The translations under genes were made by a program, and so were the position numbers. From a virus (taxonomy: Duplodnaviria > Heunggongvirae > Uroviricota > Caudoviricetes): a DNA stretch of 4,640 nt. Of the stretch, positions 1,091-4,640 are shown piece after piece; the stretch's first letter is position 1, and the number at the start of each line of letters is the position of its first letter. Under the pieces are notes generated by a model. The model worked only from the letters and a program-made list of their open reading frames with translations, was not told the DNA's origin and made no database searches. Location: IMG/VR virus record IMGVR_UViG_2541047778_000009; one strand, given 5' to 3'.

Positions 1091-1339
1091 ATGGCAAAGG
1101 GTGTGTCAATTTCTCCAACTACGGTAAGAATCCCTGAATCTTTACGCGAGGCTCTTGCTGTCAGAGCATCAAAAAATGGTCGCTCTGTTAACTCCGAGAT
1201 CGTCATGATTTTGCAAGCCGCGATTGATGAAGATAGGTCGCCAAAGTCAGTTGAGTCATTTGCTCAGCAAGAAGCTGATAAATTCAAAGAGGCGCTACTT
1301 GAGACGCTAAAGACCATGTATGCTAAGGATGAAAAATAA
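1091..1339 (+). CDS. mnt: Mnt-like ribbon-helix-helix transcriptional repressor (82 aa)
   Basis: From the ATG at 1091, preceded by AAGGTG 4 nt upstream. The protein MAKGVSISPTTVRIPESLREALAVRASKNGRSVNSEIVMILQAAI...FKEALLETLKTMYAKDEK matches P22 Mnt (83 aa) in length, the N-terminal RHH region (FNFRMPMEVREKLKFRAEANGRSMNSELLQIVQDAL) and the C-terminal helix (LKDLYKK). It is divergent from the arc-like gene as in P22. The ORF-track start at 1049 is a TTG extension and is not preferred. Confidence 0.8.
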   Translation: MAKGVSISPTTVRIPESLREALAVRASKNGRSVNSEIVMILQAAIDEDRSPKSVESFAQQEADKFKEALLETLKTMYAKDEK

Positions 1340-1875
1340 TGCTGCACACAATTCATTTCTTATGCCCTGTTAACACTGCCACTGTTGGGCAACTTCAGAA
1401 CCACTGTCTCACCGCATTATCTCAAGGCGCAACTGAATTAAATATCCATATATCAAGTCAGGGAGGGGAAACTGCTGCTGGCTTTACTGCGTATAACTTT
1501 CTTAAGTCACTCCCTGTTACCGTTAGAACTCACAACATAAGCAATGTTGAATCCATAGCTAATATCGTTTTCCTGGCTGGCTCAGAACGTTTCGCAAACC
1601 CATTATCAAGATTCCTGTTACATCCTCTATTATGGTGCTTTGCCTCCCCAGCCGCCGACCATGCCAGATTGAGAGAGTACGGGAAATGCCTCGATAACGA
1701 TCTTGATCGCTTCGTTGAGACGTTCAATATCGACATCGGAACCCATATTAGGTGGGCATCCCTGATAGCAGACTCGACCATTTTGGATGCTAACAAGGCT
1801 CTTGAGCATGGCATAATTAATTCCATAAAAACTGCAAGGCTGGCATCCAATCAGGCAAACTGGTGGGTTGTTTGA
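1339..1875 (+). CDS. ClpP-fold (S14-like) serine peptidase-like protein, 178 aa, translationally coupled to the mnt-like gene
   Basis: The ATG at 1339 overlaps the mnt-like stop (TAATG). Manual alignment to E. coli ClpP: NIHISSQGGETAAGFTAYNFL against [21 protein letters not shown]; a candidate nucleophile Ser72 (codon 1552..1554, context NVESIAN against GQAASMG); His95 (codon 1621..1623, LLHPLL against MIHQPL); a candidate Asp145 or Asp150; and C-terminal ANKALEHGIINSI against APEAVEYGLVDSI. Homology is judged by eye only. Confidence 0.55.
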   Translation: MLHTIHFLCPVNTATVGQLQNHCLTALSQGATELNIHISSQGGETAAGFTAYNFLKSLPVTVRTHNISNVESIANIVFLAGSERFANPLSRFLLHPLLWCFASPAADHARLREYGKCLDNDLDRFVETFNIDIGTHIRWASLIADSTILDANKALEHGIINSIKTARLASNQANWWVV

Positions 1876-1899
1876 TGGGTAAATCATGATTACTCCTTA

Positions 1900-1926
1900 T
1901 AAAAAACCCACCTGACGGTGGGTTTA
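1900..1926. terminator. Bidirectional intrinsic terminator between the convergent genes at 1339..1875 (+) and 1924..2373 (-)
   Basis: Stem ACCCACC (1906..1912), loop TGAC, stem GGTGGGT (1917..1923). On the minus strand the stem is followed by six T (complement of AAAAAA at 1901..1906), a strong terminator for the YafO-like operon. On the plus strand it is followed by TTT only, so it is weaker there. The hairpin overlaps the minus-gene stop at 1924..1926. Confidence 0.7.
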
Positions 1927-2373
1927 GTCAAACATAGTGTTTCTAAAGTCTCTCGCATACCCTGCTAACACTCTCATTCTATTATGATTGTTAGCAGACA
2001 TGTGAGCTACAGGATGAAAAAGAGCAATCAATGAATACCTGTTCTCATCAAAAAGATTTTGTGCATAAACGAGAGCGGTATTGGATGTTTTATGCCACTG
2101 CAACTTTTGCGGTGTGCTGATATCTGTGCCATTTTTTATTGGCTCAAATTTATTTTCACCAATTGCTAAATGAAGGTGCATAAGGCCTGCATCTTCAATA
2201 TCAGGAGGTCGATGATAAGAGGTGTCTCTGCCAAAATAGCTGGGCAACGTTCCCGTAGACTTGTAGATGATAAAATCATCTACAAGTGTTTGTTTTAAAT
2301 CAGGAAACTCAACAAAAACCGGGGAGAAAAAATAGTCAAAACTATCCTGATTATATTCCACGGTTACTTGCAT
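1924..2373 (-). CDS. YafO-family type II toxin-like protein (putative ribosome-dependent mRNA interferase), 149 aa
   Basis: ATG at 2373 with GAGG 6 nt upstream. Motifs DDFIIYKSTGTLPSYFGRD, HLHLAIGEN, ALVYAQNLFDE and LIALFHPVAHMSANNHNRM parallel the E. coli YafO sequence as recalled from memory (DFISYKRDGVLPDIFGRD, HIHLANEN, HLVYCQGAFDE, LLIAILKPEPHKLARDNNQM). It is the second gene of a tightly spaced two-gene operon (8-nt gap). Confidence 0.6.
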   Translation of the reverse strand: MQVTVEYNQDSFDYFFSPVFVEFPDLKQTLVDDFIIYKSTGTLPSYFGRDTSYHRPPDIEDAGLMHLHLAIGENKFEPIKNGTDISTPQKLQWHKTSNTALVYAQNLFDENRYSLIALFHPVAHMSANNHNRMRVLAGYARDFRNTMFD

Positions 2374-2381
2374 GTTTTACC

Positions 2382-2948
2382 TCAGTGGAAGTTACCAGAG
2401 TGAAACACACGAGTCCCGTGCTCAGCAAGCGCACGCAAACCAGCCATATCTACGGAACTATCAAAAACAACCGGAACACATGAGCGTTGTTTAATAAGAC
2501 TATTCAGGTTGGTTACGGCAGATCTGGCATCAGCAACAACGATATAGATATCTCTTGCGATCTCTTTAAAATCAGCAGAAGCTTCTTTGAATACCGATTT
2601 CATTGCCCCTTCAAGTCCTCTCAATTGATGCTCTATCAATCGAGACTTTTCTGGTTCAATGATAGACAACACATTGTCTACATTCTCATCGGTAGCGTTT
2701 GCAAGAACACGATAAGCGTATTTCAGCATTCGAGACAATTCTTTAATCGAAGACACCGCCTCATGAAGCTCATCATTAGCCCGTTCACTGCTGAATGAGG
2801 ATTGATGGTAAGCGTGCTGAACGTTATCAGTAACAACCACCTCACAACTGAACGCAGAAGCTTGCTGTAATAGCAAACCTATTGCGACTCCAGCTTTGGC
2901 AGCGTTCAAGCTAAACATTTCATCAATCCCATTAGTCTCATTGCTCAT
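2382..2948 (-). CDS. Hypothetical protein (188 aa), upstream operon partner of the YafO-like toxin; candidate non-canonical antitoxin
   Basis: ATG at 2948, preceded by a near-perfect Shine-Dalgarno AAGGAGG 5 nt upstream. The ORF-track start at 2978 is a TTG with no ribosome-binding site. Stop TGA at 2384..2382, with the SD of the downstream toxin overlapping it. No family recognised by eye; predicted mostly helical with an acidic central region. It is not YafN/RelB/DinJ-like in size or sequence. Confidence 0.6.
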   Translation of the reverse strand: MSNETNGIDEMFSLNAAKAGVAIGLLLQQASAFSCEVVVTDNVQHAYHQSSFSSERANDELHEAVSSIKELSRMLKYAYRVLANATDENVDNVLSIIEPEKSRLIEHQLRGLEGAMKSVFKEASADFKEIARDIYIVVADARSAVTNLNSLIKQRSCVPVVFDSSVDMAGLRALAEHGTRVFHSGNFH

Positions 2949-3015
2949 ACAAACCTCCTTCTTATCGGAGATTATCAATAGCTATGCATCCATTGAATAC
3001 ACGCTATGCGCAATA

Positions 3016-3044
3016 AGTTTACGTCACGTGATATCATTATGCAA
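3016..3044 (-). promoter_or_regulatory. Candidate sigma70 promoter for the 188-aa/YafO-like operon with an 8-bp palindrome (TCACGTGA, 3024..3031) in the spacer
   Basis: Minus strand reads TTGCAT (complement of 3039..3044), a 17-nt spacer, then TAAACT (complement of 3016..3021). The perfect palindrome TCACGTGA lies in the spacer, and GCTATGC recurs at 2981..2987 and 3003..3009 downstream of it. This matches the layout of an autoregulated toxin-antitoxin promoter but is judged by eye only. Confidence 0.3.
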
Positions 3045-3123
3045 CCACCGTTCTATCACCGACTAACTTTACTCCCACTCCTATACATCATCTGGTATCC
3101 TGCGCAAAACTAAGGAGGTTGGT

Positions 3124-3474
3124 GTGAATGCTCAGTCTGTCATCATGGTTTTCCTTGGGCTGATTGTCGCAAAACTATATCCAGACTGGTGGAAAGGGGC
3201 ATTAGCTACTGTCGCCATCTATTTGCTTTTATCCATCGTTAAGCGATCACTCGCTGAGACCGTAAATCAAGCAAAACGTTTCTCATTTAAGAGTTTAATA
3301 AACTATGTTACTGGGCTTATTTTTTGCCTTTCAATTCTGATCGCTTCGGCTTTTTTGCCCGTATCAATAGCTAATTTTTTTGGCGCACCATATGAGGTAG
3401 GTTATCTATTCTCTGTTTCCTGTCTTGCCATTGCTCTTCTTTACCTGTGGACGAGATCAAAGAATAAAAATTAG
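3124..3474 (+). CDS. Small integral membrane protein (116 aa, about 4 predicted TM helices); candidate superinfection-exclusion (SieA-like) or immunity protein
   Basis: GTG start at 3124 with AGGAGG 5 nt upstream. Hydrophobic stretches: VIMVFLGLIVAKLY, ALATVAIYLLLSIV, LINYVTGLIFCLSILIASAFLPVSIANFFG and VGYLFSVSCLAIALLYLW. It is convergent with the large gene at 3492..4640 and ends 17 bp from its stop. Its position relative to mnt/arc/ant matches sieA in P22. Confidence 0.6.
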   Translation: MNAQSVIMVFLGLIVAKLYPDWWKGALATVAIYLLLSIVKRSLAETVNQAKRFSFKSLINYVTGLIFCLSILIASAFLPVSIANFFGAPYEVGYLFSVSCLAIALLYLWTRSKNKN

Positions 3475-3491: not shown

Positions 3492-4640
3492 TTATTGAGC
3501 TTCTTTTTGTGATGCCTGTGCGACTCTGGTGAGCGATTGTGTGACCGTACTGATCGCTCTGTCATATGCTGTGCTACCTTTTGGCGTATTTGCCAGACGT
3601 AACAAGGCATTTCGTATAACAGGGCTTTCGTATGCCTTCGCAGCTCCTCCTACGACACCAGCAGCAGGAACAACAAACGCAGCCGTTTTTAGCATCCCCG
3701 CTAATACTGCTGCGTTTATGATGCCACCACCAACTAACAATCCATAAAGCTGCTGACCATTTAAGTTTTGAACGTTCGCTTTTGCCGCGTGTCTTGTATC
3801 GTTGAGGTATTTAATAACGCCGTCCAGTTCCTTTCCATGTACGCCTTTAAAGAAAGTTGCTGATTGCTTCCTGTTCCGGTGTAACGCATTAATAAACTTT
3901 TCAACACTAATATTTCCAGACGGATCAGTCGCCTTATCTACAGCATTCTGAACTATGGCTGCTCGTGCGTTTTGCCTACCATTGTCATCCAGAAGCCTGT
4001 AAAGCTGAGAACGTTCTGATGGGTTTTGGCTAAAAACGAGTTTTGTTACATCCTCAGGTGTAGCCTTGCCGCTGGCTATTGCCTTTTGAACGCGCGTTCT
4101 TCCCATCATGTCATTGAATCTAGCCCATGAGCGATCAACCCTAGACATATTGGCAGCTTCTTCTGAGCCTAGTTTTTGGGATACTGCTTTTTTCATATCC
4201 GCTGTATATGCCTTGTAGACAATATCGCTGGCTTTCTGGAGCGTGTCTTTATCAACAGTCTCGTTTGAATTCATGAACCGCTTTCGAAGGTCAGTTCTGT
4301 TTTCTCTCGCCAGACGCAGGTCATTGGGTCCGCTGGTGATATCGTCTTTAAATTGCTGCAAGACTTTTACCGCGGCTCTATCCTGAGATTTGCCCGGGCG
4401 GCTTAACACGGCAATCTGATTGTCGATAGCTTTTACCGTGTTTGAGAGATCGACAGGGGTATCCCCCATAGCGTCAATTATGCGGTTATATCGCTTTCCT
4501 GCTGCCTCAATGAATTTTTGTTGCCCTTTAGTCGCAGATTCATAATGAACCGCCCCGGGTTTCCTGGAGAGTGTTTTATCTGTGAACTCAGGCTGCCAGA
4601 TCATCGTTTCCGATGGAAGCATAATAAGCTTTTTCTGCTT
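3492..4640 (-). CDS. Large helical, charged protein with a C-terminal hydrophobic Gly/Ala-rich helical hairpin; probably 5'-partial; candidate phage DNA-ejection protein (P22 gp16-like position) or membrane-active toxin
   Basis: ORF track gives 376 aa from the ATG at 4622, but the frame has no stop between 4623 and the window edge (KQKKLI) and no convincing SD precedes the ATG, so the true start may lie outside the window. The hydrophobic segment LYGLLVGGGIINAAVLAGMLKTAAFVVPAAGVVGGAAKAY is encoded around 3630..3750. The first 26 codons after the ATG lie inside the inverted repeat. No family recognised by sequence; the function is inferred from composition and synteny. Confidence 0.7.
   Translation of the reverse strand, partial: KQKKLIMLPSETMIWQPEFTDKTLSRKPGAVHYESATKGQQKFIEAAGKRYNRIIDAMGDTPVDLSNTVKAIDNQIAVLSRPGKSQDRAAVKVLQQFKDDITSGPNDLRLARENRTDLRKRFMNSNETVDKDTLQKASDIVYKAYTADMKKAVSQKLGSEEAANMSRVDRSWARFNDMMGRTRVQKAIASGKATPEDVTKLVFSQNPSERSQLYRLLDDNGRQNARAAIVQNAVDKATDPSGNISVEKFINALHRNRKQSATFFKGVHGKELDGVIKYLNDTRHAAKANVQNLNGQQLYGLLVGGGIINAAVLAGMLKTAAFVVPAAGVVGGAAKAYESPVIRNALLRLANTPKGSTAYDRAISTVTQSLTRVAQASQKEAQ
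4545..4640. repeat. Right arm of the perfect inverted repeat (partner 27..122)
   Basis: See the left arm. Identical over 96 bp in inverted orientation, and it reaches the window edge. Confidence 0.9.

Follow-up and report, generated by a model that had tools for sequence, protein, structure and literature searches.

We analysed a 4,640-nucleotide (nt) stretch of DNA (hereafter, the window) from a virus of the Caudoviricetes, IMG/VR record IMGVR_UViG_2541047778_000009. We focused on the interval 1339-3123, which carries a gene for a short relative of the protease subunit ClpP and, on the opposite strand, a two-gene unit made of a gene for a 188-amino-acid (aa) protein, orf188, and a yafO-like toxin gene. 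The genes, strands and coordinates that an initial annotation had given for this interval were confirmed by the listing of open reading frames (ORFs) and by domain scans. The features needed first are these:

1091 to 1339, + strand: mnt-like ribbon-helix-helix (RHH) repressor gene, 82 aa (Pfam Arc, 41.8 bits)
1339 to 1875, + strand: gene for a short ClpP paralogue, 178 aa (Pfam CLP_protease, 44.4 bits against a cut-off of 20.2)
1904 to 1925, no strand: hairpin terminator between the convergent ClpP and yafO transcripts, seen by folding; boundary of both cassettes described below
1924 to 2373, - strand: YafO-family toxin gene, 149 aa (PF13957, 78.9 bits against 25)
2382 to 2948, - strand: orf188, 188 aa, candidate antitoxin or partner (phrog_8416)
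2949 to 3123, no strand: divergent intergenic region, comprising the upstream region of orf188-yafO and part of a conserved junction at 3087-3127

Breakpoints were taken from a blastn comparison of the window with twelve related loci (loci are cited by our L numbers). The ClpP gene lies in a first unit, cassette A, which spans from 1247, 1258 or 1299 to 1897 or 1925. Its copies in P22-like prophages whose surroundings otherwise differ (phiv205-1, which is L003, and L007-L010) are 97-99% identical, and it is equally conserved in the lambda-like siphophages L005 (PhiR12_1) and L006, where an ant-arc-mnt-ClpP module sits between tail genes. The orf188-yafO pair forms cassette B, from 1884 or 1901 to 3125 or 3146, which is 70-75% identical in L011, L012 and L014 (Salmonella houtenae and diarizonae P22-like prophages and one further prophage); these three do not carry the ClpP gene. 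Homology with phiv205-1, L007 and L009 ends at 1925, and homology with L011, L012 and L014 begins at 1884-1901. Distant copies of the pair were found within siphophage-type late-gene clusters (tail or head-to-tail) in HK639, L025, L048 and L050. In P22 itself, nothing but orf59a and sieA separates mnt from gene 16; the P22 gene order on which the initial annotation relied was right, and reads in full 16, sieA, orf59a, mnt, arc, ant, 9.

The slot of cassette B has other occupants in sister prophages. Panacea-domain antitoxin genes lie there in L003 (5807-6673), L007 (5518-5967), L009 (5090-5957) and L010 (5689-6556), followed downstream by a partner gene of 139-160 aa in phiv205-1, L009 and L010; the annotation of L007 shows the Panacea gene alone. 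In one prophage, small unknown genes fill the slot instead. For this alternative cargo, PADLOC gave no more than weak NsnC and PbeC matches, among them a C-terminal NsnC match (E 9e-6) for the partner downstream of Panacea in L003 and L009.

Among 5426 complete Escherichia coli genomes, 126 carry the ClpP gene, 55 the pair, and 51 both. Among 50,697 phage records, the ClpP gene was found in six and the orf188 family in one phage, HK639. Neither the ClpP gene nor the pair is therefore universal at this position. Since P22 is without both units, Salmonella prophages carry the pair without ClpP, and many E. coli prophages carry ClpP with other cargo in the place of the pair, we regard the cargo as accessory. 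This had been proposed for the interval, and the mapped insertion boundaries and the cargo variants seen in the same slot bear the proposal out. The initial annotation had also suggested that the two cargo units may act together. This did not hold, since in several backbones and genera either unit is found without its neighbour, and the two have different breakpoints; we therefore read the two cassettes as independent. In the E. coli CUS-3/APEC-1 lineage, 51 of the 55 pair-bearing genomes have both, as expected from common descent.

A single three-gene system would be another way to explain this neighbourhood: the ClpP-like protease would degrade orf188 on a phage or stress signal and free the YafO-like toxin, resulting in abortive infection. 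The units are indeed adjacent and convergent on one hairpin, they stand together in the 51 genomes mentioned, and the breakdown of antitoxins is typically the work of Lon or Clp proteases (PMC7781912). However, about 75 of the 126 ClpP-bearing E. coli genomes are without the pair, the pair is found without the ClpP gene in the Salmonella P22-like prophages, HK639, L025, L048 and L050, and the ClpP gene stands alone in lambda-like phages and in other genera. The recombination boundaries also differ, and we consider such a system very unlikely.

We think it probable that the interval belongs to the hypervariable 'ant moron' (gene 16 to gene 9) in a P22-like prophage of the CUS-3/APEC-1 type at argW, where two accessory cassettes were acquired and move independently. 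The cassettes thus appear to be neighbours through their recombination history and not parts of an obligate system.

Between the two cassettes, the hairpin at 1904-1925 has a 9-bp stem (AAACCCACC/GGTGGGTTT) and a 4-nt loop. It folds at -17.6 kcal/mol (z -2.8) on the + strand and at -16.3 kcal/mol (z -2.7) on the - strand. The consensus terminator scan missed it, probably through greedy stem extension into the T-run, and folding showed it to be real. It had been described as a clean bidirectional terminator. The hairpin is present on both strands, but it is a canonical terminator with a U-run only for the - strand (yafO) transcript, where TTTTTTAT comes after the stem; on the + strand just TTT follows.

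A strong ribosome-binding site (RBS) had likewise been claimed for each cargo unit, which proved correct for one of them. The perfect AAGGAGG stands before orf188, and before GTG 3124, the start of the membrane-protein gene on the far side of the interval. The site of yafO (GAGG) is moderate, as is that of the ClpP-like gene (AAGGA, inside the last mnt codons and 9 nt before the ATG).

Base composition adds little. The guanine-cytosine (GC) content is 0.378 for yafO, 0.432 for orf188 and 0.451 for the ClpP gene, with flanks at 0.43-0.45. A GC discontinuity had been suggested as a check for acquired cargo; the shift is weak and too small to serve as evidence. As for the traits of a moron, the terminator is present, the consensus scan gave no convincing promoter, and GC is slightly lower (0.41 against 0.43-0.45).

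At the left side of the interval, the start codon of the ClpP-like gene overlaps the stop codon of mnt (TAATG), an arrangement for translational coupling. The mnt-ClpP junction, AAGGATGA(A/T)AAATAATG, is identical or near-identical in the eight loci inspected. The mnt-like product itself is 36% identical to P22 Mnt (E 7e-14), and the last 14-31 codons of its gene, as given by the breakpoints at 1247, 1258 and 1299, belong to the ClpP cassette. The Mnt alleles linked to ClpP (L003, L005-L010) share a common tail, ...TLKTMYGKDEK, on at least five different N-terminal RHH domains; the allele of L010 consists of P22 Mnt to which this tail has been joined. L014, which has no ClpP gene, combines the N-terminus of the window-type Mnt with a different tail. 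Since a common tail stands on differing N-terminal domains, cassette A recombines within mnt, at codons 53-70. We take these codons to lie at about the boundary between the DNA-binding and tetramerisation domains of P22 Mnt. Being coupled to mnt and bringing its own mnt 3' end, the ClpP unit does not stand in this window as a moron of its own.

For the ClpP-like protein, the best solved relative in a search of the PDB was 9UXT_A (E 1.6e-35, about 50% identity, residues 3-175 against 4-179 of the chain), which is ClpP1 of Pseudomonas plecoglossicida (PpClpP1). Ser72 and His95 are invariant in the family alignment and align with the catalytic Ser and His of E. coli ClpP. The catalytic Asp is replaced by Ser146 in this protein and by Ser or Ala in the family as a whole, so the canonical ClpP triad is incomplete. 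The protein begins about 45 residues (about 60 alignment columns) into the E. coli ClpP precursor, and the family alignment shows that the N-terminal axial loops that dock ClpX and ClpA are missing. All NCBIfam equivalog and subfamily models for ClpP failed (19-40 bits against cut-offs of 228-361). The N-terminal truncation, the retained Ser and His, and a third triad residue other than Asp are the traits of PpClpP1.

In prophages of Klebsiella, Proteus, Chromobacterium and Pantoea, homologues at 50-60% identity occur as single genes, on the strand opposite to the lytic genes beside them. Three loci with homologues at 38-48% identity were examined, one in a Telluria genome and the others in metagenome-assembled genomes of Actinomycetota and Methylotenera, and all have ordinary chromosomal neighbours. 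Our literature search found no paper on prophage ClpP-like genes of the short, mnt-coupled type.

The gene currently has two names, 'head maturation protease' in phiv205-1 (L003 5218-5754, MN340231) and 'ATP-dependent Clp protease proteolytic subunit' in RefSeq genomes, and both exceed what the scores allow. The first name would make it a core, structural gene for a prohead maturation protease. It agrees with the best PHROG match, phrog_94 'head maturation protease' (E 7e-21), and with a match to the NCBIfam model Clp_rel_HeadMat (NF045542). However, that match reaches 49.3 bits, far under the curated cut-off of 120. The gene lies in the immI region, coupled to mnt and outside the head module, and P22 and most P22-like phages lack it. 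Its closest characterised relative is a cellular ClpP paralogue. To our knowledge, P22-type capsids mature without a protease. A head protease is thus exceedingly improbable, and the structural-role matches do not overturn the proposal of accessory cargo. We suggest that the product is neither a canonical Clp protease subunit nor a head maturation protease, and that it is best described as a short paralogue of the PpClpP1 type.

What such a protein would do can be outlined by homology. Pmnt of P22 is active in lysogens, and the ClpP-like protein would be made along with Mnt in the lysogen. PpClpP1, an N-terminally truncated paralogue with a Ser-His-Pro triad, assembles into a tetradecamer whose pore measures 42.7 angstroms, and its peptidase activity is low, 13-fold below that of housekeeping ClpP (PMC12900304). 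Its Ser and His are indispensable, unlike the third triad residue; alone it does not bind ClpX, and in a heterotetradecamer with housekeeping ClpP it gives higher ClpX-dependent degradation (PMC12900304). The ClpP-like protein, as PpClpP1, may form a wide-pore, weakly active tetradecamer, and its subunit, alone or mixed into host ClpP rings, could change proteolysis by ClpXP and ClpAP in lysogens. This might serve to control lysogeny, to exclude other phages or to raise host fitness.

The subunit could also be a poison or decoy that, by mixing into host ClpP rings or titrating partners, lowers ClpXP/ClpAP activity in lysogens and so stabilises phage or antitoxin proteins instead of raising proteolysis. 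The missing catalytic Asp and docking loops would suit a decoy, as would the weak activity of PpClpP1 alone and its failure to bind ClpX (PMC12900304). We judge it unlikely, as the heterocomplex of PpClpP1 with ClpP2 is more active (PMC12900304) and the invariant Ser72 and His95 argue for selection on catalysis.

For the second cassette, the PF13957 (YafO_toxin) match of the toxin gene product covers positions 3-101 of the 101-position model, and the core motifs YFGRDT and LVY..L.DE..Y.LIA.F.P.AH are conserved. A PDB search returned no YafO structure. Its partner, orf188, ends 8 nt upstream of yafO and has no sequence match in Pfam, NCBIfam or the PDB. The AlphaFold2 model of orf188 is all-helical, with a predicted local distance difference test (pLDDT) score of 70; Foldseek against the PDB gave generic helical bundles only, none at E <= 0.001, and no fold was assigned. 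A C-terminal segment of orf188, ...VFDSSVDM...FHSGNFH, is conserved and would be expected to face the toxin. The family is small, with six clusters at 90% identity and 24 representatives (E <= 1e-3; about 24 clusters at 50% identity) among 1.84 billion proteins. In the window, L011-L014, L025/L026, HK639 and L048-L051, its members always stand 8 nt upstream of a YafO-family gene. In all contexts examined, the pair has the layout of a type II toxin-antitoxin system, that is, a bicistron with a short spacer and a partner found only beside the toxin. Compared with the HK639 pair, orf188 is 38% and the toxin 59% identical, so the partner diverges faster.

The 175-bp region upstream of orf188 is conserved with L011 and L014. 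A search for inverted repeats (operators) in this region reported none; by eye, it has short overlapping palindromes (TGATATCA, TCACGTGA), which are not conserved in L011.

The toxin family match, the strict synteny, the faster-evolving partner and the Panacea cassettes in the same slot lead us to read the pair as a putative toxin-antitoxin module. It has the hallmarks of a type II module and would bring a new antitoxin family. By analogy with YafO of E. coli, a ribosome-associated endoribonuclease that cuts mRNA 11-13 nt downstream of the AUG (PMC7781912), the toxin would be a ribosome-associated mRNA endonuclease, and orf188 its new, unrelated antitoxin. Prophage retention (addiction), abortive infection, or both would be the likely roles. 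Our literature search found no paper on YafO as a phage defence, and NetFlax makes no mention of YafO.

Since the pair runs in the direction of the late operon in all backbones examined, we kept a lytic-cycle function in consideration, namely a translation-shutoff nuclease with its inhibitor or chaperone, expressed from the late genes. In the window and in E. coli S88 the pair lies on the strand of gene 16, ant and the tailspike gene, and the same co-orientation with late genes is seen in HK639, L025, L048 and L050; besides, no clear promoter of its own was found. However, the conserved 175-bp upstream region together with an own terminator makes a textbook moron arrangement, sister prophages have Panacea-type toxin-antitoxin cassettes in the slot instead, and the pair is 100% identical in a prophage remnant eroded by insertion sequences (ISs) and incapable of lytic growth. 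A lytic function is therefore improbable, and we retain the toxin-antitoxin reading.

Several points weigh against the picture drawn here of two independent cassettes with a ClpP paralogue and a toxin-antitoxin module as cargo. First, 51 of the 55 pair-bearing E. coli genomes also have the adjacent ClpP gene, and from distribution alone there may be a functional link between ClpP and the pair within the E. coli lineage. For the toxin, the NCBIfam YafO equivalog was not reached (79 against 153 bits), so it is not the K-12 orthologue; its AlphaFold2 model (pLDDT 53.6) is of too low quality to confirm a nuclease fold, and the Foldseek matches are meaningless. For the partner, orf188 has no recognisable DNA-binding or antitoxin domain, it is not a Panacea protein (no PF13274; hhalign probability of 0.2% against the PanA protein of the same slot), and its 188 aa exceed the usual size of an antitoxin. 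The consensus scan gave no clear sigma-70 promoter in front of the pair. Defence cargo had been expected at first; PADLOC-DB 2.0 finds no known defence system, with no match for the ClpP-like, YafO-like and membrane proteins and a lone weak ZorA match for orf188 (E 0.004, 14 bits), so no window protein has a credible match. All functional steps for both cassettes come by homology or gene context, and 50% identity to PpClpP1, with Ser in place of Pro at the third triad position, would not guarantee co-assembly with E. coli ClpP.

A broader idea, which we put forward only tentatively and hold to be rather unlikely, is that temperate phages of several backbones hard-wire a short ClpP paralogue to Mnt as a 'protease subunit swap' in the lysogen, and that orf188 represents an unrecognised family of antitoxins for YafO-type toxins. 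The subunit, with its Ser-His active site and no docking loops, would join host ClpP and re-tune ClpXP/ClpAP proteolysis, to the benefit of lysogeny control or the exclusion of incoming phages. PpClpP1, the only studied member of the short-paralogue group, remodels the host ClpP complex. If the prophage subunit does alter proteolysis in the lysogen, this would be a new prophage route to host manipulation, in the K1 lineages (S88, APEC O1) of extraintestinal pathogenic E. coli (ExPEC) and avian pathogenic E. coli (APEC).

The remaining features of the window describe the setting of the interval:

1 to 121, + strand: terminal 121 nt of the left IS3-family element, ending ...GGTTCA; truncates ant
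122 to 591, - strand: ant (antirepressor), 3'-truncated, about the first 156 codons (Pfam P22_AR_N, 154.8 bits)
592 to 658, + strand: sar antisense RNA of immI (Rfam RF00262, 83.9 bits; gathering score 43)
654 to 827, - strand: orf57, 57 aa, between the arc-like gene and ant (phrog_17642, E 1.3e-43)
824 to 976, - strand: arc-like RHH repressor gene, 50 aa (Pfam Arc, 45.9 bits)
3124 to 3474, + strand: small membrane protein gene, 116 aa, with four predicted hydrophobic segments (Kyte-Doolittle)
3492 to 4545, - strand: 3' part of gene 16 (ejection protein), C-terminal 351 codons only (phrog_29117, phrog_770)
4546 to 4640, - strand: terminus of the right IS3-family element, inverted relative to the left copy and beginning TGAACC...

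The interval had been placed in a conserved phage backbone, and this part of the initial annotation has to be revised: the window is in fact an IS-flanked 4.4-kb remnant. Its ends form a perfect 96-nt inverted repeat (27-122 pairs with 4545-4640), and the RefSeq annotation of strain SCU-116 identifies them as the termini of two inverted IS3-family elements, which truncate both ant and gene 16. The same annotation rules out that the repeat is a duplicated N-terminus of gene 16, and the 376-aa 'gene 16' ORF is the truncated gene reading on into the IS. In E. coli S88 both genes are longer, with an intact ant of 300 aa and a full gene 16 product of 670 aa. The S88 match starts at 122, and the segment 122-4545 is intact and 100% identical in S88, APEC O1 and many other K1 ExPEC/APEC genomes. 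There, the locus is a complete P22-like prophage at tRNA-Arg/intS (argW) with acyltransferase and tailspike genes.

We infer that the window is an IS-flanked remnant of a CUS-3/APEC-1-type P22-like prophage. The typing follows from the argW/intS site, the acyltransferase and tailspike genes and the 100% identity to the APEC O1 prophage, and it is backed by PMC2629481 and PMC3046976; CUS-3 was absent from the matches in our search of the phage collection. That the cassettes are 100% intact in a prophage otherwise destroyed by ISs would fit toxin-antitoxin addiction or selection for the cargo.

In strain SCU-116, all virion-assembly genes upstream of gene 16 are gone and few early-region fragments are left. 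The IS3-family copies (termini TG...CA) lie inverted at L001 10866-12121 and 16546-17801, around the 4.4-kb segment of immI plus cargo, which thereby has the layout of a composite transposon. The same element matches about 4000 E. coli genomes and many Shiga toxin (Stx) phages.

On the right side of the interval, the gene at the sieA position had been called sieA-like, which is a positional analogy only. Its product has no similarity to P22 SieA (E 0.29) and lacks the SieA motif FxRYPxEAxxFNK (PMC10883804), which P22 and L009 SieA have. True SieA was found at this position only in P22 and L009, and unrelated proteins in six loci (L007, L008, L010, L011, L012 and L014). The membrane-protein gene is thus itself variable cargo.

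A 40-bp junction at 3087-3127 is 97.5% identical in L003 (7011-7052), L007 (6299-6339), L009 (6295-6334) and L010 (6894-6933). It contains AAGGAGG and the start codon, and its appearance is that of a linker for recombination or of a translation-initiation region held in common. The genes beyond it are unrelated (true SieA, a four-transmembrane protein, a coiled-coil protein and a soluble protein). For the membrane-protein gene, RefSeq uses ATG 3145 (109 aa), and GTG 3124, 5 nt past the AAGGAGG, gives 116 aa; the conserved junction favours the upstream start.

In the immI regulatory core, sar overlaps the 5' end of ant as in P22, and the terminator scan places its terminator in a hairpin at 624-655. 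The gene orf57 is annotated in S88 and phiv205-1 and has no counterpart in P22; it overlaps the stop codon of the arc-like gene by 4 nt, and L012 and L014 have unrelated genes of 74-80 aa there. The CUS-3-type morons were described as apparently lacking arc (PMC2629481). In contrast, we found an Arc-family ORF here.

Complete immI modules (ant, arc, mnt) also lie within the tail-gene clusters of lambda-like siphophages (L005 2606-4618, L006 3013-5037, L050 2420-5123), with the ClpP gene as cargo in L005 and L006 and an orf190-yafO pair in L050. These insertions inside tail-gene clusters suggest that immI is a mobile cassette with cargo in tow. Near the immI-ClpP insertion of L006, an ompC porin gene, apparently another moron, lies within the tail-gene cluster of the lambda-like prophage (5991-7124).

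When compared to known systems, the ClpP-like protein is closest to PpClpP1. They share about 50% full-length identity, a similar size (178 against 183 aa), the missing N-terminal helix and loops, the retained Ser and His and a third residue other than Asp. They differ in that third residue, which is Pro in PpClpP1 and Ser146 here (Ala in many relatives), and in that the gene here is prophage-borne and coupled to mnt; the word 'prophage' does not occur in the PpClpP1 paper (PMC12900304). The tetradecamer and the heterocomplex were shown for PpClpP1, and for the ClpP-like protein of the window they are predictions.

The orf188-yafO pair shares with YafN-YafO of E. coli K-12 the membership in Pfam YafO_toxin, the partner-first bicistron and the short spacer. 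However, the K-12 partner is the Phd/YefM-type YafN of about 97 aa, unrelated to the 188-aa, predicted all-helical orf188, and the K-12 module lies in the dinB operon whereas the window pair is phage-borne. With the PanA (Panacea) cassettes (PMC8832971, PMC10440598) of phiv205-1, L007, L009 and L010, the pair has the identical slot, the orientation and the antitoxin-first order in common; orf188 has no Panacea similarity and the toxins are unrelated.

The membrane-protein gene resembles P22 sieA in its position, in its orientation convergent with gene 16 and in coding for a small protein predicted to span the membrane. P22 SieA, which fully excludes CUS-3 (PMC10883804), has 164 aa against 116 aa here, and the two proteins share neither sequence similarity nor the motif.

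Finally, the interval between gene 16 and gene 9 was already described as the 'ant moron', a region in rapid flux of which sixteen genomes showed ten types (Villafane, Casjens et al. 2008, PMC2629481). The phenomenon as such is thus not new. Our locus is a genuine but for the most part ordinary case of this known cargo hotspot, and it offers two leads of modest interest. The interval, its mnt/arc/sar/ant core and the varied non-assembly genes are the same in that description, where the CUS-3 and APEC-1 types were drawn and the extra genes were left as unknowns. To this we add three sub-slots with mapped breakpoints, namely an mnt-coupled slot, a slot for toxin-antitoxin cassettes and the sieA position. 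We also add family assignments for the cargo in each: an mnt-coupled ClpP of the PpClpP1 type, a candidate YafO antitoxin, and a membrane protein other than SieA at the sieA position.

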